Below are positions 5,159 through 43,876 of a stretch of 50,158 bases of DNA, piece after piece; position 1 is the first letter of the stretch; every line of letters begins with the position of its first letter. The position numbers were made by a program, and so were the translations under genes. This DNA comes from Patescibacteria group bacterium. Lineage in GTDB: Bacteria > Patescibacteriota > Kazan-3B-28. The stretch covers positions 1 to 50,158 of the forward strand of contig JAWKSK010000004.1 in the NCBI GenBank assembly GCA_041389145.1, given 5' to 3'. The notes under the pieces are model-generated. The model was not told where the DNA came from and ran no database searches. It saw nothing but the letters and a program-made list of their open reading frames with translations.

Positions 5159-5187
5159 TTGACTAGCAGTCGATATTGCCATATATT
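5159..5187 (+). promoter_or_regulatory. sigma70-type promoter of GC-rich cassette A
   Basis: TTGACT (5159..5164), 17-nt spacer, TATATT (5182..5187). About 120-nt structured leader and SD AAGGAG at 5303..5308. Confidence 0.6.
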
Positions 5188-5313
5188 GTCAGCAGTTTCG
5201 TCTGGCCATCCTTGCCAGCCTAACTACGAGTCGGGAAATTTGTTTTCCGACCTTATGTAGCACCTTTTCAGCAAAGATCTGAAGGTCCAAAAGGATACAG
5301 TGAAGGAGATTGC

Positions 5314-5727
5314 ATGAAGTTCAACTTTTTTGCAAACATTCGCGGTCCGAGTCTCGGCGTGCTGCTGACGCTCACCGTATTCGCAATGATCGCCTTCTCC
5401 GCCGCCGGCACCGCCGCCGACTGCGTGGACCTGGACAACTCCAGCTTCATCACCTCGATGGCCAACGACATCGGCCCTCCGGCCCTGTCCGGCATCGACA
5501 CATTGAAGCTCGACAGCAACCAGGGCAACAGCAACTTGACCAGCGTCGACACCGGCCGCTTCAACTTCGCCGCCGACATCGGCCCGCCGGACAAGTTCAC
5601 CAGCATGATCCCCTCCGCCGCCACAAAGCACTCGCTCATCAATGCGGCAACGAGGGCCGGATATCAGATCCAGAACAACATCGCGACCTGCGGCCAGGCC
5701 GGCAACTCCGACCGATCGGCCCGATAG
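5314..5727 (+). CDS. small secreted protein of unknown function (GC-rich cassette A)
   Basis: ATG 6 nt after AAGGAG. Sec signal peptide (…TVFAMIAFSAAGTAA/D). Internal repeat A-[ND]-DIGPP occurs twice. Two Cys. GC3-rich codons. Confidence 0.6.
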   Translation: MKFNFFANIRGPSLGVLLTLTVFAMIAFSAAGTAADCVDLDNSSFITSMANDIGPPALSGIDTLKLDSNQGNSNLTSVDTGRFNFAADIGPPDKFTSMIPSAATKHSLINAATRAGYQIQNNIATCGQAGNSDRSAR

Positions 5728-5809
5728 CTGACAACAGGAGACCCTGCTCCTGACAGACAATAATCAGGGAAGTAATAACCCAGGTCTCCAAACCCTACAG
5801 GTTGTTGCA

Positions 5810-5838
5810 CCCCCGGCGTCCGCGCCGGGGGTTTTTTA
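5810..5838 (+). terminator. intrinsic terminator of cassette A
   Basis: 9-bp G/C stem cccccggcg/cgccggggg (5810..5818 with 5823..5831), loop tccg, then TTTTTT. Confidence 0.8.
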
Positions 5839-5848
5839 TTCAAATTTC

Positions 5849-5872
5849 AACGGCTCATTTTAGTGAGCCGTT
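5849..5872. repeat. conserved hairpin, copy 1 (aacggctca-ttttag-tgagccgtt)
   Basis: 9-bp stem and 6-nt loop. 26/27 nt identical to 35843..35871. Overlaps the stop codon of the 5871..6239 gene. Confidence 0.7.
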
Positions 5873-7771: not shown

Positions 7772-7780
7772 ACCTAAAGC

Positions 7781-8500: not shown

Positions 8501-8528
8501 GCCTTAAATATACCAAACAAGGATTGGA

Positions 8529-11340: not shown

Positions 11341-11415
11341 TGGCTGGGCCGGCAGGATTCGAACCTACGCATGACCGGACCAAAACCGGTTGCCTTACCA
11401 CTTGGCTACGGCCCA
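11341..11415 (-). tRNA. tRNA-Gln (anticodon UUG)
   Basis: Hand-folded cloverleaf on the minus strand: acceptor TGGGCCG/CGGCCCA, anticodon stem ACCGG/CCGGT with loop TTTTGGT, T-arm GTAGG-TTCGAAT-CCTGC, encoded CCA. Confidence 0.85.
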
Positions 11416-11470: not shown

Positions 11471-11497
11471 AAAAATTGGGGTGCCGCAGCACCCCAA
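11471..11497 (-). terminator. intrinsic terminator of cassette B
   Basis: Stem ttggggtgc/gcaccccaa (11476..11484 with 11489..11497), then TTTTT on the minus strand. Confidence 0.75.
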
Positions 11498-11508
11498 CAG
11501 GTTCATCT

Positions 11509-12402
11509 TTACCTCTTAGGTATTCTCCCCCTCAAATATTCAGGATTCATCGGGTTGATGGACACCCTATCATCTGTACACCCGAATGGATCGAGTTCAT
11601 GCAGATTGATAACGGCCACCAGCGAACTGATCAGACCGAGGTTCATAGTCACCAGAAGCTGATTACTATCCGAAATGAGGCCCATCAGATCCACATTAAA
11701 GAGCCTACGGCTCTCATCAGAGCTCCTCGGATCCAGGTACACCTCTTCACCATAGTGATGGTCTCCTGTAAATCGGTCAAACACCAGAATGGCATCATAA
11801 CCCATCTGAACCATGTAATGACCGTTTACAAGTAGGCACATACCCCAATCAAGACTAGTACAGACACCTGGCATTACACCCACCGTGATATCAAATGGCA
11901 GGACCCTTACGTCCTCTTCATATGCCACCACGAGATGGAAGTAGGACCGTCCAGTTGGAGCATGACAGACGAACGCACCAAGAATGGTCCAGTCTCGTCG
12001 GCATTTCTCCCTGTATTCCTCGCAATCATCCTGGATGTTCAGGCTTTTCAGCCAGAGATCGGGATCGATTGATACCGACCGTTCCCCTGATGCAGGCAGA
12101 TAGGGCTCAAGCACACCAATCCCAGAGTTTTCACCCTTGCGGATGTCATCCCTCAGACGGTGGTGGTCTTCATAGTCCCAATCAAACTCCTGGCTCAGAA
12201 GCGTGATGGATCCATTCAGGTGAAAGCCGTAAGCTTTCCGACGTGCACCCGTAGATGAACACTCCAGCTCCACTTCGAGCGGATTGTATCCAAATACCGG
12301 TTTTCCGATGATCATTGCTTTTTTCACATTGACCATTCTCATAGCAGTAACTTCTCGCTTCAAACCCACAGATAGCTCCACACCATCCTCCTTGTATTTC
12401 AA
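11509..12402 (-). CDS. hypothetical protein, no recognisable family (GC-richer cassette B)
   Basis: 297-aa ORF from a TTG. The in-frame GTG at 12381 lies 5 nt after AAGGAGG (12393..12387) and is the more likely start. Antisense shadow ORFs are typical of GC-rich DNA. Confidence 0.55.
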   Translation of the reverse strand: MKYKEDGVELSVGLKREVTAMRMVNVKKAMIIGKPVFGYNPLEVELECSSTGARRKAYGFHLNGSITLLSQEFDWDYEDHHRLRDDIRKGENSGIGVLEPYLPASGERSVSIDPDLWLKSLNIQDDCEEYREKCRRDWTILGAFVCHAPTGRSYFHLVVAYEEDVRVLPFDITVGVMPGVCTSLDWGMCLLVNGHYMVQMGYDAILVFDRFTGDHHYGEEVYLDPRSSDESRRLFNVDLMGLISDSNQLLVTMNLGLISSLVAVINLHELDPFGCTDDRVSINPMNPEYLRGRIPKR

Positions 12403-12415
12403 GATGCTGCCACCA

Positions 12416-12444
12416 ATCTAATGTCAAAGTAGGGGACTAGTCAA
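12416..12444 (-). promoter_or_regulatory. sigma70-type promoter of cassette B
   Basis: Minus strand TTGACT (12444..12439), 17-nt spacer, TTAGAT (12421..12416). Confidence 0.45.
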
Positions 12445-12789: not shown

Positions 12790-12790
12790 T

Positions 12791-14507: not shown

Positions 14508-15877
14508 TGCCGTTTAAATAATTGGTATCCATTAGGTGTATCACTTATGTCATACCCCTTTTTATTAATTTCGTCACGTATTCTGTCAGACTCTGCCCAT
14601 TCCTTATTTGCTCTAGCCTGTTCTCTTTTTTCTGCCAACTCTAAAACTGTCTTATCTACTTTGGCTGGCTTCCACTTATCCAAACCCAGCCCTAAGACCT
14701 GATCCATGTCTAATAAGGTAGCTTGGACATCTGCCACATCTGCTTTAGACTTCACCATTTCCCAAACTACAGCTAGTCCTTCAGCCGTGTTTAAATCATC
14801 ACTAACAGCAGTTTTAAACTTCTTCTGATACTTCTCAATTACCTTTCCACCCTTCAATCTTGGCGCCATCACTGCCCGAAGCTTGTTCAAAGCAGTTTGT
14901 GCAGCTTCTAATCCATCTTCTGTAAAATTCAATCGATTCCGATACTGACTAGTAAGCACTAAATACCTAAAAGCCAACGGCTCAAAGCCTTGAGCCGTTA
15001 AATCGGCAAGCAAGGCTACATTCCCAAGACTCTTAGACATCTTGGTATCTTTCATCAACAAATGTTCACCATGAATCCAATAGTTAGCCAGCGGCTTACC
15101 ATATGCTGCCTCACTCTGAGCAATCTCATTATTGTGATGAGTAGTCACATGATCTATTCCCCCAGCATGAATATCGAATGGCTGTCCCAGCTCTTCTGTA
15201 GAAATTGCAGAACATTCTAAATGCCATCCTGGAAAACCCATCTTCTTATGATCTACTGGTGATTTCCATTCCTGTAATCTAGGACCAATGGAAAACTTCC
15301 ATAAGGCAAAATCAAAAGGATGTTTCTTGTCTGGATCTACCCCAGTTCTACTCTGCATCTCTTCTGGATCTCTTTTATTCAAACCTCCTAGTTTTCCATA
15401 CTTACCAAACTTTTGTGTATCAAAATAGATTCCATCTTCAGTTTCGTAGGCATATTTCTTACTAAAAATTCTCTCAACTAATTTCTTTTGTTCCGGAATG
15501 TATTTAGTAGCCCACGCAAACTTAGAAGGCATTAAAATATTTAAAGCCTTCATGTCTGTTTTAAACTCATCAAAATACTTCTTGGTAACATCAGAAGCTT
15601 TAACCCCCTTACTCTTAGCAGATTCTTCTACCTTATCTGCTCCAATATCTCCATCCCCTGTTAAATGACCTACATCGGTAACGTTAATAATATGCTTTAC
15701 CGTATATCCGTTGTATTCCAACACTCTTCGTAAGATATCTTCAAACAGATAACTTCTCATATTTCCAATATGAGGTGATTGATACACCGTTGGACCACAG
15801 GCATATAACGAAACTTTGCCACTTCGAAGTGGCTTAAATACCTGTTTCTTACTAGTTAGCGTATTAAATAGCTTCAT
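14504..15877 (-). CDS. cysS: cysteine--tRNA ligase
   Basis: HIGN and KMSKS class-I signatures. Typical length of 457 aa. Confidence 0.92.
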   Translation of the reverse strand: MKLFNTLTSKKQVFKPLRSGKVSLYACGPTVYQSPHIGNMRSYLFEDILRRVLEYNGYTVKHIINVTDVGHLTGDGDIGADKVEESAKSKGVKASDVTKKYFDEFKTDMKALNILMPSKFAWATKYIPEQKKLVERIFSKKYAYETEDGIYFDTQKFGKYGKLGGLNKRDPEEMQSRTGVDPDKKHPFDFALWKFSIGPRLQEWKSPVDHKKMGFPGWHLECSAISTEELGQPFDIHAGGIDHVTTHHNNEIAQSEAAYGKPLANYWIHGEHLLMKDTKMSKSLGNVALLADLTAQGFEPLAFRYLVLTSQYRNRLNFTEDGLEAAQTALNKLRAVMAPRLKGGKVIEKYQKKFKTAVSDDLNTAEGLAVVWEMVKSKADVADVQATLLDMDQVLGLGLDKWKPAKVDKTVLELAEKREQARANKEWAESDRIRDEINKKGYDISDTPNGYQLFKRQ

Positions 15878-20054: not shown

Positions 20055-20228
20055 ACCTGAAATTAAACCGAGTTCTCCGACCTCTTAAAAATCAAAAATA
20101 ATTCAATTACCAAAAAATTGGACAAATATTCCAACCACCTATTTATTTCCTAATTTCATCACAAATTAGCCCGACTCCTCTACTCATCAGACCATTTTGC
20201 AAATAATTAGCTCCTAGAGCACATTTAT

Positions 20229-20257
20229 TTGACTTTATACCTGATAACAGGTATAAT
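20229..20257 (+). promoter_or_regulatory. consensus sigma70-type promoter of cassette C
   Basis: TTGACT (20229..20234), exactly 17 nt, TATAAT (20252..20257). SD GGAGG at 20304..20308. Confidence 0.7.
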
Positions 20258-20315
20258 CTACCCATCTTGTAGGGAATAATATCCCGGTATTAACAATTCA
20301 AATGGAGGTGAAGCC

Positions 20316-23075
20316 ATGCGCTTCATTCTTGCGTTTTTCATCTCTGTTCTCGTCGCAAGCTGCGGTGCGAATAACTCATCCACCATGGATGAGCAGACAC
20401 AGCTTCAAGACCAACTGGTCAAGGAGCTCAACAAGCAGCTGTCTATGACCTGGGAACCCGATATCGAACCCATCAAGAAGTTCGATGAGGAAACCAGGAC
20501 ATTGTACTGGTGCCTACGGGGAGATTACGATCTCACTGGTGAGGTTGGCATCTCAGATGTCACTCCCATCAGTCAGTACTTCCAGCAGTCAGTGGATGGA
20601 GAGGTTTCTCCCCCACTGATTCACGATGCTCCCTGGTGGGTAGATGGAGACGATAACGGGCAAATTACAACTGCCGATATTACTCCAATCGCCCGCAACT
20701 TCCAGGCTCGTGCGTTCTGGTGGAAAACATCAGTAGGCTGGGGCCAGACCTATGGTCCCTACGCTGGACTGTTCTTCATTCAACTTCCCGAGGATGTAAA
20801 TCCAGAGGAAGTGGTCCTGAAGATAAGTTCAGAACCAGAACCTGAAGTAGAACCTGAAAACATCGCACCAATTGCAATCCTGCAAGCGAATGCGGTGACA
20901 GGACTGGTACCATTCGAAGTAACATTCGACTTCTCATCCTCTATTGATATAGATGGTGAGATCGCTACCTACGACTTGGATCTGGATGGCGACGGCTACT
21001 ACGATGATCATTCAGTACCCACACCGGGTTCTGTGACCAAGCTCTACGATTCACCAGGAAGTTTCCTTGTGAAACTGCGGGTTACCGATAATGACGGAGC
21101 GGTTGGCTTTGACAGCTATCCGCTAGTGATTTCTACACCCGACAATCAGCCACCGGTAGCCAAGCTCACGGTTACACCAAGTTTCGGCCAAGTTCCCTTG
21201 GACGTCATCCTTGATGCATCTGAGAGCTTCGACCCTGACGGACACATCTACGTTGTTCAGTGGGATTTTGAAGGTGATGGCATCTGGGACATGCAAAGCG
21301 TGGGTCCAGACTCAATTCAACCTCACACTCACACCTATACCGAACCCGGGAAGTATATTCCTCGGATTCGAGTGAAGGACAACGACAACGTAACCAGCGT
21401 TGCTGAGGGCGCCTGGATGATGCTAACTGCGCCAAGCAAGCACGTTCCCACAGCGAATCTGACTGCTAATCCGACATTCGGAATTGCTCCATTGTCTGTA
21501 GTATTCAATTCTGCTGGCTCCAATGATCCTGATGGCTACATCGTCCAAGCAGACTATGATTTCAACAATGATGGAATTTGGGATGCTTATGATGCTGATC
21601 TTCAGGTGAACTGGGAATACACAGAACCTGGACTACATGTCGCCAAGGTGAGAGTTACCGACAACGATGATTACGAGGACTATGCGTCTCTCGTCATCAA
21701 TGTTGGCGTGGAAGGTAACCTTCCTCCTCTCGCATTCCTGAGTGCAGATTTAGTTGCTGGAAATGCACCATTCGAGGTGAACTTCAATGCAACTGGGTCC
21801 TCTGATCCTGACGGCACAATCGTCAGATACGATTACGACTTCAATGGTGACCAGATCTGGGATGCCTACGATTCACCTGCACAGGTGGCATGGACATTTC
21901 AGGAACCTGGAAACTATGCATCAGTCGTGAGAGTGACAGATGATGACGGAGAACAGTCATGGACCTACATCAACATTGAAGTAGGCCTTGGCTCATCAGG
22001 TGGCGATGCATCTGGTCCAGGTGACTGGGCAATGTTTGGGAGAGATCCACAACATACCAGCCAGAGTCCATTCACTGGACCACAGAATGCAACACTTGCC
22101 TGGGAATATCAATTGGGAGGCAACCTATTCCGCTCGAGTCCAGTAATGGATCAAAACGGTGTCATATACATAGGTTGTAGTGATTACTACTTATACGCTA
22201 TTAATCCTGACGGGTCCCTTAAATGGCGATTTCTGACAGGATATGTAGTGTATTCAACCCCTGCAATTGGACCAGATGGAACTGTGTATATCACGGACAA
22301 TGATGCGCAGATGTATGCACTTAATCCAAATGACGGGGCCTTAATATGGCAATGTTATTTAGGTGGAAGTGACATCATTTCTAGTCCAGTGATTGATACC
22401 TCGGGCAGAATCTACATTGGCACACCATCGGGACTTAAAGCGGTTAGTTCGTCAGGAACAATCGAATGGAGTTTCCAAACCAACGGAAACGTCCAATCAA
22501 GCCCTGCTATTACCCCAAGTGGTAATTTGGTGTTTGGAACTTCAAACTCAAGGGTATATTCAGTACATCCAATCGGTTTTCAAAACTGGGTATATGTCTC
22601 AGAAACACCTGGTACAAGTTTCGAATCCAGCCCCGCTATAAACCCAAATGGAGATATCTATATCGGTGCAACCAACGGATATCTCTACGCGGTTAAGAAT
22701 GATGGGAATCTGGATTGGAAATTTGCAACCGGTGGAGGTCTCTACTCCAGTCCTGCAATCGCTAACGATGGCACTGTTTATATCGGTGGAAGTTATGACC
22801 ATTACTTCTATGCAATCAACTCCGACGGCACCATGAGATGGAGGTATCAAACCAACGATCGAATAAATTCCAGTCCGTGTATCGGATTGGATGGGACTGT
22901 GTATTTTGGCGATCTAACACCAAGCGGAACTGATCTCATTTATGCAGTCAGCCAAGACGGCCAGTTAAAATGGGTATTCCCCGCAGGCGGAGAGATTCAA
23001 ACAAGCCCGTGTATAGGCCCAGATGGTTCTCTATACATTGGAGGAGGAAGAAATCTATTTGCCTTCCGCGACTAG
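20316..23075 (+). CDS. lipoprotein with dockerin-like loops, four PKD domains and a C-terminal PQQ/BamB-like beta-propeller
   Basis: Lipobox MRFILAFFISVLVASC. DGDDNGQITTADITPI dockerin-like loop. Four repeats of the ...F.A..S.DPDG.I..Y.WDF..DG...VRVTDNDG type. Repeated G.VY.GS.D..LYA.N..G...W motifs. Confidence 0.8.
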   Translation: MRFILAFFISVLVASCGANNSSTMDEQTQLQDQLVKELNKQLSMTWEPDIEPIKKFDEETRTLYWCLRGDYDLTGEVGISDVTPISQYFQQSVDGEVSPPLIHDAPWWVDGDDNGQITTADITPIARNFQARAFWWKTSVGWGQTYGPYAGLFFIQLPEDVNPEEVVLKISSEPEPEVEPENIAPIAILQANAVTGLVPFEVTFDFSSSIDIDGEIATYDLDLDGDGYYDDHSVPTPGSVTKLYDSPGSFLVKLRVTDNDGAVGFDSYPLVISTPDNQPPVAKLTVTPSFGQVPLDVILDASESFDPDGHIYVVQWDFEGDGIWDMQSVGPDSIQPHTHTYTEPGKYIPRIRVKDNDNVTSVAEGAWMMLTAPSKHVPTANLTANPTFGIAPLSVVFNSAGSNDPDGYIVQADYDFNNDGIWDAYDADLQVNWEYTEPGLHVAKVRVTDNDDYEDYASLVINVGVEGNLPPLAFLSADLVAGNAPFEVNFNATGSSDPDGTIVRYDYDFNGDQIWDAYDSPAQVAWTFQEPGNYASVVRVTDDDGEQSWTYINIEVGLGSSGGDASGPGDWAMFGRDPQHTSQSPFTGPQNATLAWEYQLGGNLFRSSPVMDQNGVIYIGCSDYYLYAINPDGSLKWRFLTGYVVYSTPAIGPDGTVYITDNDAQMYALNPNDGALIWQCYLGGSDIISSPVIDTSGRIYIGTPSGLKAVSSSGTIEWSFQTNGNVQSSPAITPSGNLVFGTSNSRVYSVHPIGFQNWVYVSETPGTSFESSPAINPNGDIYIGATNGYLYAVKNDGNLDWKFATGGGLYSSPAIANDGTVYIGGSYDHYFYAINSDGTMRWRYQTNDRINSSPCIGLDGTVYFGDLTPSGTDLIYAVSQDGQLKWVFPAGGEIQTSPCIGPDGSLYIGGGRNLFAFRD
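20868..21995 (+). repeat. tandem array of four PKD-domain coding repeats (about 280-290 nt each, diverged)
   Basis: Seen at protein level (about aa 185-560 of the 919-aa ORF). Confidence 0.65.
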
Positions 23076-23103
23076 AGCTTAACCGACTGAACCGGTTCCT
23101 TGA

Positions 23104-23129
23104 AGGGGCGCTTCGGCGCTCCTTTTTTT
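23104..23129 (+). terminator. intrinsic terminator of cassette C
   Basis: Stem aggggcgc/gcgctcct (one G-U pair), loop ttcg, then TTTTTTT. Confidence 0.8.
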
Positions 23130-26035: not shown

Positions 26036-27058
26036 TCACACGGCAATTGTGTTTCTCTCAGACATCAGATCCTCTAAATACAATCTCGTTTTGTAACTAT
26101 CAGCATGGGATAAATAACCAAGATATGACTGGTATCTGCTTTCAAGATTATCGTCTTCTCTGTCAATGGATTTAGAGAGGTTTTTGAATATCCTTCTGAT
26201 TGTTTTATTTCGGGGCAAATTATAGTGTGGCAAAGTCACATACCCAACATAATCTATCCCCCAGTTGAGCTTTCGGATGGAGATCTTGTTTGGATGAAGA
26301 TTCAACTTGAGACGGCCTTTGAGAAATTGATTAATCTCAACCAAATAACCCAATAGCTCGTCTTGGTTGTTAGACAGAAGAACAAAGTCATCGGCATATC
26401 TAAGATAGTGTTTGGCTTTGAGTTTATGCTTAACGAATTTATCTAATGGATCCATATAGACATTAGCAAATAGTTGAGATGTAAGATTGCCCAATGGCAT
26501 ACCTTTACCTGGACTGTGTTCAAAGCTCTGGATAATATTCTTTAGCAGATCCAATAGTTTTTCATCAGCTATTCGCTCCTCTAACAACCCGATGAGAATA
26601 TTATGATCGATGCTGTCGAAGAACTTACGGATGTCACATTTCAGAGCAAAACAGGGTTGGATGTAGTTCTTGGATATTTTGCGAGTAATTTGATTCAATT
26701 TTTCAAAGGCTTTGTGAGTTCCCTTCTCATTACGACAAGAGTAACTACCATGGATGAAGGTTTTATCAAAAACTGGGTAAAGGGTTCTGTAAATGGCTTT
26801 ATGTAGCAATCTGTCACGAACATTGGCTTTATGAATGCTTCTTGGTTTGGGGTCAGATATCTTGAAAGGATGGTATTTAGAGTGCTGATAGGTTCCGTCA
26901 ATCAAATCCTGATGTAGTTTTAAAATATTAGCCATCAAGTCTCGCTCAAATAGCTGGACATCTTTTCGACTGCGTTTGCCTACCGCAAACTCTCTCCAGG
27001 CATCCAGGAGATTATCTACTGAAATGATATGATGATACTTATTACTAATGACTTTCAA
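26036..27058 (-). CDS. DGR-type reverse transcriptase
   Basis: RT motifs including PLGNLTSQLFANVYM (DGR-typical [IL]GxxxSQ) and YADDFVLL. TTG start. Adjacent to the TR and the Avd-like gene. Confidence 0.85.
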   Translation of the reverse strand: MKVISNKYHHIISVDNLLDAWREFAVGKRSRKDVQLFERDLMANILKLHQDLIDGTYQHSKYHPFKISDPKPRSIHKANVRDRLLHKAIYRTLYPVFDKTFIHGSYSCRNEKGTHKAFEKLNQITRKISKNYIQPCFALKCDIRKFFDSIDHNILIGLLEERIADEKLLDLLKNIIQSFEHSPGKGMPLGNLTSQLFANVYMDPLDKFVKHKLKAKHYLRYADDFVLLSNNQDELLGYLVEINQFLKGRLKLNLHPNKISIRKLNWGIDYVGYVTLPHYNLPRNKTIRRIFKNLSKSIDREDDNLESRYQSYLGYLSHADSYKTRLYLEDLMSERNTIAV

Positions 27059-27083
27059 GGGAATTAAAATGACTAAGAGTATT

Positions 27084-27110
27084 CACACACACACACACAC
27101 ACACACACAC
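27084..27110. repeat. (CA)13C dinucleotide microsatellite
   Basis: Direct read: 27 nt of uninterrupted CA repeats in the 57-bp gap between the divergent RT and Avd starts. Confidence 0.95.
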
Positions 27111-27115
27111 TTCTG

Positions 27116-27490
27116 TTGCCACTGTTGCAGAAGTTAAAGACCTTATATGTCCTGTGGCATGATTATCATAGCATTCTGCCGAAAACCCACCGGTATTCAT
27201 TGGGGCAGAAAATAGATAACCTCTTTACAGATACGATTGAAGTGGTAGCTCAAGCTAGTTTCTTGGCAAAAGCCGAGAAGATTCCCTACGTCAAATTAGC
27301 CATTAGAAAGGTAGATGCACTCAAAGTGTTTCTGCTAGTTTTATGGGAAACTAAATCCTTAGATAACAAAAAGTATGTGGCTTTATCTAAACTACTAGAT
27401 GAGATTGGCAAGATGTTAGGTGGCTGGATGGGACAGCTCAATAAGCAAAACTCTCTCGACTTAAAGCCAAGAGAGAAACGAAGAAAGTAG
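27116..27490 (+). CDS. avd: Avd-like four-helix-bundle protein (DGR accessory variability determinant)
   Basis: 124 aa, basic. Pattern typical of the four-helix-bundle/23S-IVS protein family (...LDEIGKMLGGWMGQL). Only a TTG start with no SD in the current frame. Confidence 0.7.
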   Translation: MPLLQKLKTLYVLWHDYHSILPKTHRYSLGQKIDNLFTDTIEVVAQASFLAKAEKIPYVKLAIRKVDALKVFLLVLWETKSLDNKKYVALSKLLDEIGKMLGGWMGQLNKQNSLDLKPREKRRK

Positions 27491-27491
27491 C

Positions 27492-27625
27492 GACGGGCAA
27501 ACACCCAGCGGTTGTTGCCATTCCAGTGGTTGTCGGGATTGTCCCAGTACGTGTTGAGCCAACGGTCGTTGTCATCGTGGTTAACGTTGAACACGTTCGG
27601 GTTGCCATCGGAATCCGTGATTTGT
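27492..27625 (-). repeat. DGR template repeat (TR)
   Basis: 134 bp, 112/134 identical to VR. All 22 differences are at TR sense-strand adenines. AAC/AAT-rich. Confidence 0.9.
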
Positions 27626-27862: not shown

Positions 27863-27891
27863 AAAAAGAGCCCGCACGTTGCCGTGCGGGC
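27863..27891 (-). terminator. terminator or DGR-associated GC hairpin downstream of VR
   Basis: 9-bp stem gcccgcacg/cgtgcgggc with a 4-nt loop (GCAA on the minus strand), followed by TCTTTTT. Confidence 0.7.
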
Positions 27892-27948
27892 AAGGGCCAA
27901 AAGCAAAGTACTAATGGTCCAAAGGGATCAAGTTCTGAGTGCTGAGGA

Positions 27949-28620
27949 CTACTTGAGACGGGCAAACACCCAGCGGTGGCTGCCATACCAGAGGCGGCCG
28001 GGACTGCCCCAGTACGCGTCGAGCCAACGGCCGTGGTCATCGTGGAAAACGTGGAACACGAGCGGGCTGCCATCGGAATCCGCGATGGGTTCCATGGCGA
28101 TAATCAGCACCTCACCCTTAGGCTGATCGGGATACTGCTTACGCATTTCAGGGCCAGCCCAGGCCGGGAGCAGATCGCCACCTGCCTTGCAGATGGCGTC
28201 GAAGATTTCCGTCGTAGTCGGCTCAGACTTGCCGGTCAGCTCCGTACCGGTAGCCGAGACCAGATCGACACTGTTGATGTCGAAGCCCTTCTTGAAGCCG
28301 GGTTTCTTCATGATGTCGGCCGACCAGTCGCTGATGCGGAAGCCACCCGCCTTGAGGTCGGCGGTGTAGGCCTTGGCATCATCGCAAGTCCGCTGGAGAG
28401 ATTTCCAGATGGGACGCTGTTCGATGGGCAGTTGCAGGACCCGTTCGTTTGCCAGGACATCCAGCAGACCCCAGACCCGATTCTTGAAATCGGAGTGGCC
28501 CTTGGCCAGTTCCAGCTTGTCCTTGCCACCAGGATAGTTCTTGGTAACCTGGATCAGCAGATCAGACTGACCGTCAGTGACGGGTTCAATAGTTCCAGAA
28601 GTACGCTGATCTTTACACAT
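27949..28620 (-). CDS. DGR target protein with C-terminal variable region
   Basis: 223-aa ORF. SD AGGAG 7 nt before the ATG. The C-terminal 44 codons form the VR. About 60% GC. Confidence 0.85.
   Translation of the reverse strand: MCKDQRTSGTIEPVTDGQSDLLIQVTKNYPGGKDKLELAKGHSDFKNRVWGLLDVLANERVLQLPIEQRPIWKSLQRTCDDAKAYTADLKAGGFRISDWSADIMKKPGFKKGFDINSVDLVSATGTELTGKSEPTTTEIFDAICKAGGDLLPAWAGPEMRKQYPDQPKGEVLIIAMEPIADSDGSPLVFHVFHDDHGRWLDAYWGSPGRLWYGSHRWVFARLK
27957..28090 (-). repeat. DGR variable repeat (VR)
   Basis: Counterpart of the TR at a +465 offset. Ends 8 nt before the stop codon. Confidence 0.9.
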
Positions 28621-28715
28621 CAGGTGGCTCCTCTCGATACACCTTGTATAGGTGCTGGTGGTTAATTTGTGGTACTAGAAAACTCAAGATTACGACCACT
28701 CCACCTAACACCCTA

Positions 28716-28744
28716 ACGATACCAGAAACACATGTAAATGTCAA
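28716..28744 (-). promoter_or_regulatory. promoter of the DGR target gene
   Basis: Minus strand TTGACA (28744..28739), 17-nt spacer, TATCGT (28721..28716). Confidence 0.5.
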
Positions 28745-28748: not shown

Positions 28749-28771
28749 AAATCCGCTCTGAAAGCGGATTT
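28749..28771. terminator. hairpin directly after the murB stop
   Basis: Stem aaatccgc/gcggattt with a 7-nt loop. The T-run is stronger on the + strand than on the minus strand. Confidence 0.45.
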
Positions 28772-29665
28772 TTACCTAACCACCGTTATCTCCATTTCCA
28801 ATTCATAGCCCAATTCTTCTTTCACAGCATCTTGGGCTAGTTTAGCCAAAGCCAATACATCCGAGGCCTTCGCACCACCCAGATTCACAATGTAATTAGC
28901 ATGCTTAGAACTAATCTGTGCACCCCCAATTGTTTTCCCTTTTAGTCCTACTTGATCTATTAATCTTCCAGCCCCAACTCCCTCAATCTTTTTAAACACA
29001 GAACCACATGATGGATATTCATCCAACTGTGGTTGTCTTGCAGTTCTCCACTCCCAGTTTGCATCCACAATCTTTTGCATCTCTTCAGGAGAAGACGGAG
29101 CTAACTGAAACCGTGCAGATAATACATAAATCTTGCGACTATGTAACACGCTAGTATCATATCCAAATTCAAAGAAGTCTTTATCTACGGTTTCCACTTC
29201 TCCGTTTTCCATCAAAACCTTGGCATCGATTAGAATATCACCAAGATACAAAGTAGATTCCCGATCTGGGCTTAAGAAATGCAGGTTCTGCCAAATCGCA
29301 CCACCGATCGTACTAGGTATCCCAATAAAATGTTCAAAACCAGATAACCCAACGGGAACTGTAGCCTTAATAATATCAGCTACCACTGCCCCGCTACCTG
29401 CTTCTAATACCTCCCCATCAATTACAAATTTTTTTGCTCTGTTTGCAATCACCAATCCCCGATATCCTTCATCTAAAAACAACAGGTTAGCACCAGTACC
29501 AACTACAAAATATTTAATCCCCTCTTGCTTGGCCCAACCAATTACAGACTGCAACTCTTCTACAGTTTCTACCTCCACTAAGAAATCTGCCTTCCCACCG
29601 ATTTGATAGGTAGAATATGGAGCTAGTAAAACACCCTCTCGTAACCCCCGAGGCTTATCATTCAT
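28772..29665 (-). CDS. murB: UDP-N-acetylenolpyruvoylglucosamine reductase
   Basis: FAD-binding N-terminus (GGKADFLV...VVGTGANLL), the GSVFKKIEGVGAGRLID segment and the MurB C-terminal domain. Confidence 0.9.
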   Translation of the reverse strand: MNDKPRGLREGVLLAPYSTYQIGGKADFLVEVETVEELQSVIGWAKQEGIKYFVVGTGANLLFLDEGYRGLVIANRAKKFVIDGEVLEAGSGAVVADIIKATVPVGLSGFEHFIGIPSTIGGAIWQNLHFLSPDRESTLYLGDILIDAKVLMENGEVETVDKDFFEFGYDTSVLHSRKIYVLSARFQLAPSSPEEMQKIVDANWEWRTARQPQLDEYPSCGSVFKKIEGVGAGRLIDQVGLKGKTIGGAQISSKHANYIVNLGGAKASDVLALAKLAQDAVKEELGYELEMEITVVR

Positions 29666-34820: not shown

Positions 34821-34849
34821 TTGACATCCTCTACAGTTTTTTACACAAT
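34821..34849 (+). promoter_or_regulatory. sigma70-type promoter of cassette E
   Basis: TTGACA (34821..34826), 17-nt spacer, CACAAT (34844..34849). SD AAGGAG at 34891..34896. Confidence 0.5.
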
Positions 34850-34902
34850 GCCTGCATCTGAACCTTACAACCTGTACTGTCAATCCAAATAAGGAGAAAT
34901 CC

Positions 34903-35790
34903 GTGGCTAAAAAAGTACTTAGGGTAGATCGAGAGGCAAGAAAGGAAGAAAGAACCTTCCTGCCTTGGGAACCGGGTGCGAGTGCTTTCGGATCAGTTAA
35001 GGTCAAACCTTCTTCACAGCAAGAAGATAGAAACAACCTTATGAATTGCGAACAGCCGAACTATCTCACGACCCGAAGCAAGAAACTACAGTCTCAGCTT
35101 CGCGAGATGGTCATTCAGTTCCCCCAGTTGCCGGACCTCTACAACATGGCCAATGCCGGGTTCGTGATAGATCGAGATTCCAAGCCAGATCACCAGAGAG
35201 TAGAAGATTCTTATGGTAATCACGACGCATGGACTCAACCGACAGAGATTTCCAGTCCGAGCCTGGGCCTAATCCCTGATCTCAAGCAACAGCTTGAGGA
35301 ACTCGACCCCAAGTCACTGGAGCACCTATGGCTATCAAAGCTCCTCAGCTTCTGCACCAATCTAGTCATATGTCATGGATGCGGCTACCTTCGCACCACC
35401 AAGACAACTGGCAGATTCGATAACACTTCTGGAGATCTCTGCTTCATAGTCATGGAGGCATACCTGCCTGACAGATGGAGCACGAAGCCAAAGTACCTGC
35501 CTCACTGGGACGACGGTCGCCAATCAGTATGGTGCTGCTATCACAAGGCTAAGAGCCAGCACACAAGCGACCAGTGGATAAACAGCCTCCCCGAAGGTGG
35601 CAGCGAATACTATCTCTACTACAACAGAACAGGAGAGTGCATTCACGCCATCCACAAGAAAACCAACCTCAGCTATCGTCGTCCCCAGAACGAAATCAGA
35701 GGTTCACTCTTCACTGAAAGTGAGGAAATGAACATTCTCCGAATCAGTCCCCGCCCCTCCTCTTCAGGATGGAATGACATCATTAGGTAG
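34903..35790 (+). CDS. hypothetical Cys/His/Trp-rich protein, no recognisable family (GC-richer cassette E)
   Basis: 295-aa ORF with a GTG start 6 nt after AAGGAG. Opposite strand to the dcw genes it separates. Confidence 0.55.
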   Translation: MAKKVLRVDREARKEERTFLPWEPGASAFGSVKVKPSSQQEDRNNLMNCEQPNYLTTRSKKLQSQLREMVIQFPQLPDLYNMANAGFVIDRDSKPDHQRVEDSYGNHDAWTQPTEISSPSLGLIPDLKQQLEELDPKSLEHLWLSKLLSFCTNLVICHGCGYLRTTKTTGRFDNTSGDLCFIVMEAYLPDRWSTKPKYLPHWDDGRQSVWCCYHKAKSQHTSDQWINSLPEGGSEYYLYYNRTGECIHAIHKKTNLSYRRPQNEIRGSLFTESEEMNILRISPRPSSSGWNDIIR

Positions 35791-35811
35791 ATCGTACCAG
35801 TACTCAACTTC

Positions 35812-35842
35812 GACCCCGTCAGCAATGGCGGGGTCTTCTTTT
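35812..35842 (+). terminator. intrinsic terminator of cassette E
   Basis: Stem gaccccg/cggggtc (35812..35818 with 35829..35835), then TTCTTTT. Confidence 0.7.
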
Positions 35843-35845
35843 ATC

Positions 35846-35869
35846 AACGGCTCATTTTTGTGAGCCGTT
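35846..35869. repeat. conserved hairpin, copy 2 (aacggctca-tttttg-tgagccgtt)
   Basis: Same 9-bp stem as 5849..5872. Lies 4 nt from the murD stop codon. Confidence 0.7.
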
Positions 35870-37893: not shown

Positions 37894-37924
37894 TTGACTT
37901 TTTACCCAGATGTGGTAATATAAT
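37894..37924 (+). promoter_or_regulatory. sigma70-type promoter of cassette F
   Basis: TTGACT (37894..37899), 16-nt spacer, TAATAT (37916..37921) preceded by TGg (extended -10). SD GAGGTG before the ATG at 37950. Confidence 0.55.
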
Positions 37925-37949
37925 AGCAACATTGAACCAGAGGTGAGAC

Positions 37950-38234
37950 ATGTCTGCAATTCAGACAACGCTTAATTCCACGGATGTTCTCGTGGACCTC
38001 AAGAAAAGAACACAGGACTTCCTTCGCGAATTGACAAGCTGGTGGCTCAAACCTGCCAGCCCTGAACTTCGTTCCAAGAAGGACGACCTGTACGACAGCA
38101 TCGTAAAGTTGACCCGGAACAGTGAATTCGGTCACGTCACCTTCAAGGTGAGCCAGGCAGCCTTCGATGGGGAAGATGAAATCAGAGCAATTGCCGACGA
38201 TCTCGTAACACTTGCCGAGATCTCAAAGCAGTAG
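37950..38234 (+). CDS. small cytoplasmic hypothetical protein (GC-rich cassette F)
   Basis: 94-aa ORF, helical and charged, no signal peptide. GC3-rich codons. Confidence 0.5.
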   Translation: MSAIQTTLNSTDVLVDLKKRTQDFLRELTSWWLKPASPELRSKKDDLYDSIVKLTRNSEFGHVTFKVSQAAFDGEDEIRAIADDLVTLAEISKQ

Positions 38235-38256
38235 CCCTTGCACCCAGTCTTCCACA

Positions 38257-38287
38257 AAAGGATGACCCCACCCAGGTCATCCTTTTT
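38257..38287 (+). terminator. intrinsic terminator of cassette F (bidirectional)
   Basis: 11-bp stem aaaggatgacc/ggtcatccttt, 7-nt loop, T-run. Confidence 0.8.
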
Positions 38288-39645: not shown

Positions 39646-39697
39646 TAATTTTCGCTAATACTAATGTCATTATACCGCTCTGGAAAAACCGCACAAC

Positions 39698-40162: not shown

Positions 40163-41323
40163 CTACTTCTGATATTCACTCAGTAGTTTTTTCTTTGCAG
40201 ATAATACTGCTCCAACTCCATACAACACCACAACTGCCTGCAATAACCAACCAATGATTGGAACATAGGCCAAGATAATGCCAATCAGAACTCCAAGACC
40301 CAGATTCCAGAACTGATCCCATTGGTTCTTATGGCTATGTTGTCTTAAGTAACTTCCAATGCCATAAGCACCAGCGATTGCACCAAATACAATCAACAAG
40401 CCATATGCCAAGAAGATGACACTAGCTACTGGAATTCCAACCACAGTGATAGCAAACAACATGGCCAGTACTGGAGCCACAATCATTACCAACAGTCCGT
40501 TCCAGATATACATTGCAGTATTCTTCTGTGCTTTCATCGTATCGATAATCTGTGGGAAATACTTTGGTAGTAACCAGATAATAATTGAACCCAACAATAA
40601 GAAGCTCAACCACTTCCAAAGCACCGCAGTCAGTCCTGCAATTGTTAACAATGCAATCAAACCTCTAGTAGATGCATTTGGATCTACAGCTTGGTTAAAC
40701 TCAACGTTCTTTGCATAGTTAACCAAAGTTGGATCTTCTCTTGGGGCCCAGTATCTTAAGCTCTCACCAATTTTTCCATTGTTTCCAAAGCTTAGACCTT
40801 CTGAAATATGAATCTCTGCATCTCCACCCACCAATCCATCAATCCGACCCTTACCTAGCCAACTAGTAAGCTCTTCATTAATCTGTCCATACAAGGACAT
40901 CTCTCCAGCTACGCTCCAAACGCTACCGCGAATTGTAGCTCCATCAGCAATTGTGAACTCACCACCAACCGCCATGACATCATCTGCTACATTGCCGTTG
41001 ACGTTTAAAGTTCCACCCATCATTCGGATGTCATCACCAACTGCTCCATTAACCACTGCGCTACCCCCTACCAACCACAAGTCACCGGTAACTGCAGCGT
41101 TAACAATCACATTTCCTCCAATCACAATCAAATCTCCTTGGACCCGATTGTTTACCGTCACTGTATCACCCACCACATACATATCATCCCGTACTACTTC
41201 TTCTTGTAATACATTCTGACCAGTAATAATTGTTGGCACTGCCAAAGCTGGTGCTGCCATCCCAAACATCACTACTCCGATTCCTAAACTGACACCGATT
41301 TTAGATAGTAATTTCATATCCAT
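40163..41323 (-). CDS. bactofilin-like beta-helix repeat protein with C-terminal multi-TM domain
   Basis: Repeated GD.x.V.GG.V.VNG.V motifs followed by about five TM helices. Confidence 0.5.
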   Translation of the reverse strand: MDMKLLSKIGVSLGIGVVMFGMAAPALAVPTIITGQNVLQEEVVRDDMYVVGDTVTVNNRVQGDLIVIGGNVIVNAAVTGDLWLVGGSAVVNGAVGDDIRMMGGTLNVNGNVADDVMAVGGEFTIADGATIRGSVWSVAGEMSLYGQINEELTSWLGKGRIDGLVGGDAEIHISEGLSFGNNGKIGESLRYWAPREDPTLVNYAKNVEFNQAVDPNASTRGLIALLTIAGLTAVLWKWLSFLLLGSIIIWLLPKYFPQIIDTMKAQKNTAMYIWNGLLVMIVAPVLAMLFAITVVGIPVASVIFLAYGLLIVFGAIAGAYGIGSYLRQHSHKNQWDQFWNLGLGVLIGIILAYVPIIGWLLQAVVVLYGVGAVLSAKKKLLSEYQK

Positions 41324-41742
41324 TAAAAGTTAACTGGAATTGCCACCTCATCATCAAACTGTGGTTCACCAGATGGATTATCTTTTATAAACACTAATAA
41401 CCCACTGGTTTCATTCTGTGGGTCAAATTCAACATTAGCTTCAAAGGTTACAAAGTCCTCAGTCATCCAATCACCCTGAGCTGTAGCCAGCCCAGCACCT
41501 AGAACATTGTTATTATTATCCCTTACTTCAACTGGGAACGATGCTTCAAAATACCAAGTCCCCTTAGCCTGACCCACTACCGTCAGTGGACTATCGACAG
41601 CGTCATATGCACTAATCGATTCCAAAATAATTTTAGTAGGGTCACCAACCTGATTATTTTGAAATCCCCCGATTTGCCAATATCCGATTACAAAACCCAG
41701 TGCAAAAAAGATTCCCGCAATAATTAGATTTGTTTTACTCAT
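41323..41742 (-). CDS. Gmad2-like Ig-fold domain protein
   Basis: N-terminal TM. SPLTVVGQAKGTWYFEASFPVEVRD pattern. Confidence 0.5.
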   Translation of the reverse strand: MSKTNLIIAGIFFALGFVIGYWQIGGFQNNQVGDPTKIILESISAYDAVDSPLTVVGQAKGTWYFEASFPVEVRDNNNNVLGAGLATAQGDWMTEDFVTFEANVEFDPQNETSGLLVFIKDNPSGEPQFDDEVAIPVNF

Positions 41743-41790
41743 ATTTCTCCTTAAGTTTATCTACTATCATCCTACCACGACAACTTCAAA

Positions 41791-43182
41791 ATGTTCGTCC
41801 CAACTCTAAAATCTTGCTATATTGAAGCCATGCCTACAACTATTCAATTTTTAGGTGCTGCTGGGGATGTAACTGGATCAAGCTACCTCCTAACCACCGA
41901 TTCAGCTAAATTCCTAGTCGACTGCGGACTCTTTCAAGGCAGTCGCGACAACGAGAAACATAACTACGACGACTTCGTCTTCAACCCTAAACAGGTTGAT
42001 TTTATGATTCTCACCCATGCCCACCTAGATCATTGTGGCTTAATCCCCAAACTCTATCGCCATGGCTTTCGTGGTCCCATCTATGCCACCCCTGCAACCA
42101 AAGAGCTAGCTCAACTCATTCTCACCGACGCTGCCCAAATCCAAGAGAATGGAGTAAATGAACATCAATTAGATATTCTCTTCAGCAAAAAGGATGCTAT
42201 GGGAGCCCTGGAACTATTCCAGACTGTAGAATACAACAAGTCCTTTTCTCCAGCCTCAGGGATTAAGTTTAAATTCCAAGATGCTGGCCATATCTTAGGC
42301 TCTGCCATGATTGAACTTTGGATTGGTAAAAAGAAAATTGTTTTCTCAGGAGACATTGGCAACTGCCCAGTCCCAATCATGAATGATCCCAGCCTAATCC
42401 AAGAAGCCGACTATGTTCTCTGCGAATCTACTTACGGAGACAGATTACACAGCTCTTCTAACAAACGTGACTCCGAACTCTTAAAAATCATCCGTCATGG
42501 TAAAAAACATCACGGTAAGATTATTATCCCTTCCTTTGCCCTCGAACGTAGCCAGGACCTACTCTATGCCCTCAACAACATGAGCAATGCCAGACAACTC
42601 CCTCATATTGATATCTATCTAGATAGCCCACTGGCAATTAAGATTACTGAGATCTACAAAAAATACACCAAACTATTCGATAAAGAATTCCAACGGCTCC
42701 TCAAATCTGATTCAGATCTTTTCAACTTCCCTCGTTTCCAATACACCCTCACCTCCAAAGAATCGATGGTCCTAAACGATCTTGAAGGTCCTGCTGTCTA
42801 CATCGCCGGTTCCGGAATGGCAGATGCTGGAAGAGTCCAACATCACCTACTTCATCACATCGCCAATCCTTCCACCCAGCTAATCTTTGTAGGGTTTCAA
42901 GCCCCTGGCACAACCGGCCGTAAGATTATCGATGGCGCAAAACGAATTCAAGTAAATGGCCGCTGGATTCCAGTACGTGGCCAAATCTGGAGTATCGACT
43001 CCTTCTCTGCCCACGCCGATCAAAAAGGACTGATGCGGTGGCTGGCTGGCTTTAACACCAAACCTACAGTCTTTTTTACTCATGGTGAAGAACAATCTCG
43101 GGCAGTCCTAGCCGAGAAGGTAAACAAACAACTTAAATACCCAGTCCACAAACCCCGAATGTTTGAGGTCTTTGAACTATAA
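41791..43182 (+). CDS. MBL-fold beta-CASP ribonuclease (RNase J/CPSF-like)
   Basis: THAHLDHCG motif, beta-CASP segment, C-terminal SAHAD. The likely start is the ATG at 41830 (MPTTIQFLGA). Confidence 0.8.
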   Translation: MFVPTLKSCYIEAMPTTIQFLGAAGDVTGSSYLLTTDSAKFLVDCGLFQGSRDNEKHNYDDFVFNPKQVDFMILTHAHLDHCGLIPKLYRHGFRGPIYATPATKELAQLILTDAAQIQENGVNEHQLDILFSKKDAMGALELFQTVEYNKSFSPASGIKFKFQDAGHILGSAMIELWIGKKKIVFSGDIGNCPVPIMNDPSLIQEADYVLCESTYGDRLHSSSNKRDSELLKIIRHGKKHHGKIIIPSFALERSQDLLYALNNMSNARQLPHIDIYLDSPLAIKITEIYKKYTKLFDKEFQRLLKSDSDLFNFPRFQYTLTSKESMVLNDLEGPAVYIAGSGMADAGRVQHHLLHHIANPSTQLIFVGFQAPGTTGRKIIDGAKRIQVNGRWIPVRGQIWSIDSFSAHADQKGLMRWLAGFNTKPTVFFTHGEEQSRAVLAEKVNKQLKYPVHKPRMFEVFEL

Positions 43183-43207
43183 AAACAGGGTGCACTTTCA
43201 TGCACCC
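43181..43207 (-). terminator. intrinsic terminator of cassette G
   Basis: Stem gggtgca/tgcaccc (43188..43194 with 43201..43207), then TTTTT on the minus strand. Confidence 0.7.
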
Positions 43208-43225
43208 CTAAACGCTGGTTCAAAT

Positions 43226-43876
43226 TCAGATCCCCATATCATTCTTGAGTTTGGAGGAAATTTTGGGATCGGTAGTAAAGTAATACTCTACCAACCTTCC
43301 CTTACTGCGGAAGAACGCGAAGGTTCCGTCTGCATCCTCAGCCCAGACCATCACCTGGCCCCAAGGAACCAATTGCTGGGATTTTTTGAGGACATCCACC
43401 CGACCAATGAAACGTGCTACCATCTCATCGCTCAGCCGATCCACAAAGATCGCACGATCCCGTTCAGTCATATTGCGATCCACAAATCCCGTAGAGTATT
43501 CCAGGACCACCCGGTCCTCGACGTCCAGTCCCAGAATCATTGCCAACGGAAGATTGGTCCAGTCCGGTAGCGGCTGTGGAGCAAAGGTTGCGGTTCGGTA
43601 TTCTGAAGCGACATTAAATGCGCTTGCCAACACCGAGCTACCTCCGTGACCATGGAAGTCCTTGGTGCCATAGTCCGACTCCAACAGGGTCTTACCCAGC
43701 TTGATGTGATAGTCGAGGCCATGTTCGATCTGAAACAGATTCACCTCATGTGCAACTGTCACTGAGTCGGCAATCACCGTTTCAGCGTAGAACCGTTCGA
43801 GCGTGTCCGGATACGCCCGACTGGTTAGCAATACCATTGCCAACCCACACAGAAAAGCCATCAGCAATCTGCGCAT
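43226..43876 (-). CDS. secreted hypothetical protein (GC-richer cassette G)
   Basis: 216-aa ORF. SD AAAGGAG before the ATG. Signal peptide MRRLLMAFLCGLAMVLLTSRAYP. Confidence 0.55.
   Translation of the reverse strand: MRRLLMAFLCGLAMVLLTSRAYPDTLERFYAETVIADSVTVAHEVNLFQIEHGLDYHIKLGKTLLESDYGTKDFHGHGGSSVLASAFNVASEYRTATFAPQPLPDWTNLPLAMILGLDVEDRVVLEYSTGFVDRNMTERDRAIFVDRLSDEMVARFIGRVDVLKKSQQLVPWGQVMVWAEDADGTFAFFRSKGRLVEYYFTTDPKISSKLKNDMGI

Follow-up and report, generated by a model that had tools for sequence, protein, structure and literature searches.

Seven self-contained single-gene units, most of them GC3-rich, among conserved operons of a Patescibacteria chromosome may be exchangeable accessory genes

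The window analysed here is the complete contig C4 (JAWKSK010000004.1, 50 kb) of a Patescibacteria group bacterium (Patescibacteriota; Kazan-3B-28), and the genome to which it belongs (assembly GCA_041389145.1) is a metagenome-assembled genome (MAG) of 13 contigs and 542 kb with 42.8% GC and 86% completeness. The gene content was typical of Patescibacteria, or the candidate phyla radiation (CPR), with a compact dcw cluster that has a sortase gene inside, dnaB-dnaX and recR-ybaB; the window also carries cysS, several Nudix genes and a diversity-generating retroelement (DGR). Scattered among these genes, an earlier sequence-only reading had picked out seven single-gene units, named U1 to U7 here, and described them as GC-rich cassettes of uniform build. 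Each has a predicted promoter, a strong Shine-Dalgarno sequence (SD), one open reading frame (ORF) and a hairpin terminator, and they lie as follows (GC3 is the GC content at third codon positions).

5159..5838, plus strand: U1; promoter 5159-5187, leader of 126 nt, ORF 5314-5727, terminator 5809-5832; product of 137 aa with a signal peptide, GC 0.618, GC3 0.877
11471..12444, minus strand: U2; promoter 12444 to 12415, SD AAGGAGG, end of the ORF at 11509, terminator 11498 to 11475
20229..23129, plus strand: U3; promoter 20229-20257, ORF 20316-23075, terminator 23102-23125; product a 919-aa lipoprotein with 4 PKD domains and a PQQ-type beta-propeller, GC mildly raised
27863..28744, minus strand: U4, the DGR target; promoter 28744 to 28716, ORF 28620 to 27949, terminator 27891 to 27870; product of 223 aa, GC3 0.71, variable repeat (VR) 28086 to 27957
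34821..35842, plus strand: U5; promoter 34821-34849, ORF 34903-35790 (295-aa orphan), terminator 35812-35835
37894..38287, plus strand: U6; promoter 37894-37921, ORF 37950-38234 (94-aa orphan), then a terminator hairpin
43181..43949, minus strand: U7; candidate promoter 43949 to 43921, ORF 43876 to 43226, terminator 43208 to 43187; product a 216-aa orphan with a signal peptide

The start codon of U2 is probably the GTG at 12381, behind AAGGAGG, which gives an orphan product of 290 aa. The promoters predicted from the sequence were TTGACT-17-TATATT for U1, TTGACT-18-TAGATT for U2, TTGACT-17-TATAAT for U3, TTGACA-17-TATCGT for U4, TTGACA-17-CACAAT for U5 and TTGACT-16-TAATAT for U6, and the candidate for U7 at 43949 to 43921 was TTGATT-17-TATATT. 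In the stretches that were scanned, the top six terminator-like hairpins were those of six units; the terminator of U6 was read by eye. The calls of promoter, strong SD, single ORF and hairpin terminator made in the sequence-only reading thus held for the seven units. Since native genes such as arsR, with its promoter TTGACA-17-TAATAT, share the same style, this build is generic to stand-alone genes and not special to the units.

Compared to the genes of the whole genome (mean GC 0.427, sd 0.032; mean GC3 0.395, sd 0.066), the GC3 of U1 had a z-score of 7.5, followed by U4 (GC 0.585, GC3 0.714, z 5.0), U6 (GC 0.502, GC3 0.611, z 3.4), U7 (GC 0.518, GC3 0.594, z 3.1) and U5 (GC 0.500, GC3 0.571, z 2.8). 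For U2 (GC 0.489, GC3 0.523, z 2.0) and U3 (GC 0.480, GC3 0.455, z 1.0), 4% and 13% of the genome's genes, respectively, were equal or higher. The robust outliers are therefore U1, U4, U5, U6 and U7, while U2 is marginal and U3 is not GC3-rich. GC was raised at all seven places, as had been claimed, but to an unequal extent, and the difference was significant for five of the seven and not for U2 or U3. The further claim that every unit uses GC3-rich codons was borne out for U1 and U4 to U7 only, and antisense shadow ORFs, ascribed to each unit, were found in U1, U2, U4 and U7. The rise in GC lay in the ORFs; unit promoters had 28-38% GC and untranslated regions mostly 41-50%. Third-position use differed between units, with C3 from 0.22 to 0.64, G3 from 0.17 to 0.34 and T3 from 0.06 to 0.31: U1 was C-rich, U2 and U7 were G-rich with T3 near native, and U4 was almost without A3. 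Native-codon scoring rejected U1, U2 and U5.

The closest reference genomes are from the same family but from different genera (MurD identity 52-56%), and the comparison set consisted of seven relatives from five other genera. In these relatives the core genes run in the order RNase J gene, p40163, Gmad2, Germane, (superoxide dismutase, SOD), murD, ftsW, murG, sortase, murC, ftsQ, a variable slot, dnaX, dnaB, p18738, peptidyl-prolyl isomerase, ybaB, recR, eamA and cysS. The junctions dnaB/p18738, murD/ftsW and SOD/Germane measured 0-325 bp in the seven relatives, whereas here they held the whole of U3, U5 and U6, respectively. U5 splits the murD and ftsW pair, and U6 lies between the convergent SOD and Germane-domain genes. 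These complete units at junctions that are empty in the relatives supported the view that the units are discrete extra genes. The gap from the RNase J gene to the M23 peptidase gene, which holds U7, was 0.77 kb here compared to 10-19 kb in four relatives. U2 sits 5′ of the tRNA-Gln gene (11341-11415, minus strand) and not at a tRNA 3′ end. No homologues of the units were found in the other genera. Thus, presence at the same loci throughout the lineage applied within the species (U4 being uncovered, see below) and not across the family. As a separate observation, murB (28772-29665) lies between ftsQ and the DGR here and was missing from this slot in all seven relatives.

Sister-strain contigs were taken from three WANG18-1 ENA assemblies, three further ENA assemblies, JGI 3300009095 and Logan runs. 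U1, U2, U3, U5, U6 and U7 were found at identical sites in contigs of at least six other samples with 95-99% nucleotide identity, and these independent assemblies excluded chimeric assembly for six of the seven units. Because sister strains hold them at the same sites, the six units are not assembly artefacts. A 13-contig MAG could contain chimeras, and GC-rich DNA yields long ORFs in several frames, so that spurious ORFs in non-coding DNA had to be considered as well. However, the unit ORFs showed strong codon periodicity, had SDs at the proper distance, in part encoded signal peptides, and remained open despite 24-41 substitutions between strains. No unit matched an Rfam family; Rfam and tRNA scans of the window gave tRNA-Gln alone, and the units are therefore not known RNAs. 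Taken together, we regard an artefact of either kind as having a negligible probability.

The non-synonymous evolution of the units could be measured for three of them, with dN/dS values of 0.62 (U1), 0.37 (U2) and 0.37 (U5), compared to 0.01-0.15 for 13 neighbouring core genes and 0.38 for the non-core native ORF p1149. At non-synonymous sites the three units thus evolved 5-30 times faster than their neighbours, and by sequence comparison they have the appearance of coding genes on which selection is weak or diversifying. In U1, the first 200 nt were identical between strains and both flanks nearly so, while the C-terminal ~70 codons (5480-5727) carried 39 differences in ~200 nt, in equal measure at first, second and third codon positions. 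A third U1 allele differed in a neighbouring block, and in two samples the contigs ended within the variable stretch. A second DGR VR was considered for this region and rejected, as no template repeat (TR) for it was found in the genome, only 22-nt internal repeats were present and the differences showed no base specificity.

The population was a recombination mosaic in which segments of 0% divergence adjoin segments of 5-11%, and the genome encodes ComEC. The sole strain-level swap of a unit seen in the window was in the DsbB/SdpI slot, which holds p13505 here and an unrelated 356-aa ORF in a sister strain (L069 13613-14865); homology ended at both flanking stop codons. The hairpin behind p13505 has a 10-bp stem built of AGAGCG/CGCTCT half-sites, as in the promoter module described below. 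Other differences between strains lay outside the units. Left of position 2282, every sister-strain contig diverged from the window; the SdrD_B-type surface protein encoded in 1-2282 has 256 aa here compared to 568-1004 aa in the sister contigs, and one of these (L066) had 3.5 kb of additional DNA in the matching region. In ftsE (46039-46734), an in-frame stop splits the gene and leaves a 183-aa ORF, while sister contig L067 has an intact gene of 231 aa. Conversely, the conserved p40163 (40163-41323, 386 aa) has a deletion in L067 (7090-7496) that leaves a 99-aa ORF.

The products had been described as orphan or of secreted or surface type. When 5.8 billion protein clusters or 1.84 billion representatives were searched, U1, U2, U5 and U7 had homologues in sister strains alone. 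U6 had no credible match in 300 Patescibacteria genomes, and U3 had no close relative in 185,579 species genomes, only domain-level matches at 24-27% identity. The five orphans U1, U2, U5, U6 and U7 had no match in Pfam, NCBIfam, PHROGs or PADLOC, and PADLOC matched none of the seven units as an anti-phage defence gene. Export signals were present in U1, U3 and U7. A dockerin-like N-terminus of U3, seen by eye, was unsupported by Pfam and by a PDB sequence search, and a weak match of U2 to a 1542-aa repeat protein was uninformative.

U4 was confirmed as a DGR target, since TR (27492-27621) and VR (27957-28086) differed at TR adenines only (minus strand), and RVT_1 and bAvd domains were identified beside it. 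The reverse transcriptase (RT) gene, the Avd gene and TR had native composition (GC 0.38-0.40), and the GC3 of RT was 0.40 compared to 0.71 in U4. In this DGR, RT, TR and target share one strand and the Avd gene lies on the other. The DGR occupied the ftsQ/dnaX slot here and in relative G001, and a place upstream of murD in relative G006. The RT and Avd of these two relatives were 83% and 89% identical although their MurC proteins were only 66% identical; with the different slots, this suggests that the DGR moves within the family. In G001, a 48-nt direct repeat with 94% identity (L039 15019-15066 and 17354-17401) contains the promoter module and lies on both sides of a segment made up of the DGR target, TR, Avd and an RT gene truncated at codon 189; the repeat starts inside the RT coding sequence. 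The rest of the DGR and the other features of the window that are referred to below are the following.

26036..27621: rest of the DGR; RT 27058 to 26036 (minus strand), Avd 27116-27490 (plus strand), TR 27621 to 27492 (minus strand)
20210..20220, plus strand: module palindrome GCTCCTAGAGC of U3, 8 nt 5′ of the U3 -35 box
28749..28771, minus strand: hairpin AAATCCGCTTTCAGAGCGGATTT, murB terminator and module palindrome directly 5′ of the U4 -35 box
5128..5140, plus strand: half-module motif ATCCCAGAGCGAA in the divergent C39/U1 promoter region, with non-canonical spacing to the U1 -35 box
5848..5872: palindrome AACGGCTCA-N6-TGAGCCGTT, copy 1, between the U1 terminator and the stop codon of the convergent native gene
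35845..35869: the same palindrome, copy 2, between the U5 terminator and the murD stop codon
13434..14103, minus strand: DsbB/SdpI slot, holding p13505 (172 aa) of native GC

The earlier claims that the units lack mobility genes and flanking direct repeats were both upheld. No integrase, transposase, recombinase or resolvase domain was found in any window ORF by domain searches, the DGR RT being the sole enzyme of such a kind, and repeats around the units were not above shuffled controls. The one Phage_integrase-family gene of the genome, an Xer-like tyrosine recombinase, lies on another contig (C2:25522-26034). A tRNA- or tmRNA-associated island was not indicated, as the one tRNA of the window (Gln) had neither a repeated end nor an integrase, and an insertion sequence, transposon or miniature inverted-repeat element was equally unsupported by the Pfam search and the repeat controls. 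A viral origin was rejected as well: PHROGs matches were confined to the generic beta-propeller of U3, and when 2.9 million viral contigs were scanned for the promoter module, 24 matches came up, none with the T-rich spacer, a count that by a rough estimate is at or below chance.

Genome-wide, such units number about 25-30; a whole-genome scan for stand-alone GC3-rich ORFs gave about 30, mostly behind a TTGACW promoter and ahead of a GC hairpin that ends in a T-run, and with no paralogues among them except a weak match of U3. A GC offset in stand-alone genes recurred in relatives whose genomes have 42-53% GC. The ORFs in their variable slots were 5-10 points GC-richer than the genome (G010 0.50 vs 0.42; G008 0.51 vs 0.45; G007 0.59 vs 0.53). 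The DGR targets of G001 and G006 had a GC3 of 0.66-0.67 next to RT and Avd genes of native composition, which brings the range for DGR targets in three genera to 0.66-0.71. In a census of 14 related loci that used a crude definition of orphans, the GC of locus-specific ORFs tracked that of the host core (r = 0.90, slope 0.81), the ORFs lying on average 2.3 points above it (Wilcoxon p = 0.007).

These data bear on a recent horizontal gene transfer (HGT) from one or a few high-GC organisms, such as a host or partner on which this bacterium presumably lives as an episymbiont, in which case the GC excess would be an unameliorated donor signature. The codon-position periodicity of U1 and U4 was strong, as in genes that evolved in genomes of 58-65% GC, the units are absent from other genera, ComEC is present, and frequent HGT into Patescibacteria has been published (PMC12455944). 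In contrast, the protein searches showed no homologue outside the species, in a distant donor or otherwise, the promoters are of host type and some carry a family-specific module. The heterogeneity of third positions between units counts against a single donor, and together with the family-wide GC offset and the GC3-rich DGR targets beside native RT and Avd it argues against one high-GC donor. The proposal of the sequence-only reading that all units arrived by one route from a single high-GC partner was accordingly not sustained, and we consider recent HGT from few high-GC organisms unlikely. Instead, we favour a GC pattern that would be a property of the gene class, or would result from repeated exchange within a compositionally co-varying gene pool.

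Two kinds of short sequence recurred around the units. The 27-nt palindrome had 13 intergenic copies in the genome, those after U1 and U5 being near-identical, and one AACGGCTCA...TGAGCCGTT copy lay within the cysS coding sequence (14977-14998). Most copies were right behind native stop codons or within native operons, and none were found in the loci of relatives. It was therefore rejected as a cassette joint, and its distribution identifies it as a generic, species-specific 3′-end element. The second kind was the motif YAGAGC, which was present up to 40 nt 5′ of the -35 box in 12 of 78 strong promoters, with fixed spacing in nine of the 12. GC-rich units lay downstream of eight of the 12 motif-bearing promoters compared to six of the 66 without the motif (Fisher p = 5e-5), and the other four were seen to drive small orphans or a gene fragment. 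The motif was considered as the att core of a tRNA end and rejected, as no tRNA end matched; it forms one arm of a palindrome that precedes the -35 box by a fixed distance. Alignment with relatives revealed a family-wide module, AAAAAT-n-CGCTCYYAGAGC-nn-ATTTT-n-C-TTGACW-N17-TAnnAT, in which CGCTCYYAGAGC stands 8-11 nt before TTGACW. The module was found in G001, G004, G005, G006, G008, L048, L049 and L056, each time before a non-conserved and usually GC-richer ORF. In the window it was canonical in U3 and U4, U1 had the motif at an odd spacing in its divergent promoter region, and U2, U5, U6 and U7 were without it. Between G006 and the metagenome contig L049, a homology of 73% extended across the conserved divergent gene and the module and ended directly behind the -10 box; the transcribed parts, with ORFs of 114 and 124 aa and a hairpin terminator behind each of them, were unrelated. 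Judged from its sequence, the module may act as an operator or as an insulating mini-terminator, or may be a site of recombination.

A further explanation considered was a dedicated system of gene capture without an integrase of its own (integron-like, Xer-dependent and dif-like, or through an RNA intermediate), with fixed platforms that would take interchangeable cassettes the size of a transcript. The platforms would be the promoter module or copies of tRNA or tmRNA ends elsewhere in the genome. The fixed spacing of the module in this genome and in at least eight relatives, its link to GC-rich downstream genes, the break of homology behind the -10 box in G006 and L049, and the 48-nt module copy that brackets the DGR segment in G001 are all consistent with such a system, as are arrays of the module plus a CTCCACCA end on contigs C1 and C8 and the presence of a single Xer-like recombinase and a DGR RT. 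However, only U3 and U4 have the canonical module, flanking repeats are lacking, and the 27-nt palindrome at two 3′ junctions is generic and mostly between native genes. Furthermore, the sites of U3, U5 and U6 take whole units with their promoters, no presence or absence variants were seen among strains, the fixed distance to the -35 box suits an operator or insulating terminator at least equally well, and hyper-divergence of an orthologous gene could imitate a replacement. The cassette-insertion mechanism raised earlier was thus neither shown nor excluded, with no shared flanking sites on one side and the family module and one homology break on the other; a dedicated capture system seems to us rather unlikely. 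Apart from the units, the tRNA/tmRNA-like 3′ end GCTCCACCA was noted on C1:55.8-57.7 kb and C8:4.9-5.9 kb; AAAACTCTGTCCCAGAGC and a TTGACA promoter come directly after it, and the GCTCCACCA-AAAACTCTGTCCCAGAGC copies stand in tandem on C1. No reliable match to a tmRNA gene was found in the whole genome with RF00023 or ARAGORN.

The shared, family-conserved upstream palindrome, together with the predicted consensus promoters, strong SDs and strong terminators, may also suggest that the units are native genes which form the regulon of a palindrome-binding factor and owe their GC3 to selection for expression through codon bias or mRNA stability. Highly expressed genes are unlike these weakly constrained orphans (dN/dS 0.37-0.62), the preferred third bases vary between units, native-codon scoring rejected three of them and the palindrome is missing from four of the seven. 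We consider this explanation improbable.

To our minds there is about an even chance that the seven units are chromosomal moron-like accessory genes of a fast-evolving class that includes the DGR target, that they are exchanged as whole units and that GC3 marks the class and not a donor. The units would be expression-autonomous single genes: a consensus promoter and a strong SD would stand ahead of an ORF that evolves fast and is mostly an orphan, and a strong terminator behind it. In a subset the family-conserved A-tract/CGCTCYYAGAGC/T-tract element would precede the promoter. Their places would be the inter-operon gaps of a chromosome that keeps its core gene order throughout the family, and their products might act at the surface, be secreted or take part in interactions, with diversifying or relaxed selection on them. 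Gain, loss and swap of units may proceed by DNA uptake and recombination in the conserved flanks, a route suggested by the presence of ComEC and the recombination mosaic of the population, or alternatively by illegitimate insertion into terminator-promoter gaps. The enrichment of G+C at third positions would be kept by the gene class across the family and would not be the fading imprint of a recent donor.

Several points weigh against this proposal. Recent import from unsampled donors would likewise yield orphans, and our analysis identified no force that holds GC3 high. The claim of a class property rests on DGR targets that are not demonstrably homologous (those of G001 and G006 had no detectable homology to U4), on the crude orphan definition and on few loci. 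Among strains, none of the seven units was seen to be gained or lost, so that their turnover is deduced from the comparison between genera only, and in an unrooted comparison three losses in a sister clade are as parsimonious as three gains. The confirmation by strains excludes U4, as none of the sister contigs fetched spanned its locus. Finally, single-sequence AF2 models of U5 and U7 had a pLDDT of 36-38 and were unusable, so the functions of the units are guesses.

A bolder version with a small but real chance is that of a separate gene compartment, in which insulated platforms (A-tract, CGCTCYYAGAGC palindrome, T-tract and TTGACW) would take swapped orphans and DGR targets without a dedicated recombinase while a GC-biased process holds GC3. 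This process might be gene conversion or a bias linked to RT or repair, and would act whatever the composition of the host genome.

Bacterial genes that are orphans or newly gained usually have a GC content equal to or below that of their genome. In this case, a whole class is GC-richer, fast-evolving and, by its predicted signals, self-expressed, and it is wedged into the most conserved operons, such as murD/ftsW, of a minimal genome. If the composition is maintained and not inherited from a donor, this would point to a mutational or conversion bias tied to hypervariable genes, and 'foreign composition' would be unsafe as a marker of HGT in CPR bacteria. The promoter module, be it the site of a binding factor or of recombination, would offer a handle on the regulation or exchange of probable host-interaction genes in ultra-small symbionts.

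Integron cassettes are promoterless, bounded by attC sites and next to an IntI gene, and dif modules are bounded by inverted XerC/XerD sites. The units resemble the cassettes of integrons and of clusters of attC sites lacking integrases, and Xer-dependent dif modules, in being small and single-gene in a genome without a cassette-borne recombinase. Unlike these, they had neither attC nor dif sites as boundaries and no IntI around them: the 27-nt palindrome was present at only two of the seven units, and in place of a common Pc promoter each unit has its own promoter-like site and terminator, on both strands. With the variable-protein genes of DGRs, U4 alone shares adenine-only mismatches between TR and VR at the 3′ end of the gene and the adjoining RT and Avd; it differs in the opposite strand of Avd, in its own promoter and terminator and in a GC3 far above that of RT.

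The units are close in form to phage morons (PMC3594210), which are likewise autonomous promoter-gene-terminator units between genes of a conserved backbone, with a composition unlike that of their neighbours, accessory or unknown functions and no mobility gene of their own. In contrast to morons, the backbone is a cellular chromosome and not a prophage, with dnaB, dnaX, murB/C/D/G, ftsW/Q, the RNase J gene, recR and cysS as neighbours and no match to a phage-specific family; the units are GC-richer and not AT-richer than the backbone, and a subset has the family-conserved upstream palindrome. Acquired genes and genomic islets (Lawrence-Ochman amelioration model; PMC12455944) are similar in their atypical composition, patchy and lineage-restricted distribution and position between conserved genes, but here the donor is untraceable and the units are single genes with host-type promoters. 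The amelioration model does not predict a GC offset that recurs in relatives of differing GC, nor the DGR targets of three genera. The units also resemble species-specific prokaryote orphans in having no homologues outside the species, short length, atypical codons and weak purifying selection (PMC11293555). In that survey, the GC and GC3 of orphans closely matched the host genome and phage-like orphans were lower in GC, whereas five of the seven units here were 2.8-7.5 sd above the genome GC3. Since the GC of orphans normally matches that of the host (PMC11293555), the pattern in this chromosome is unusual.

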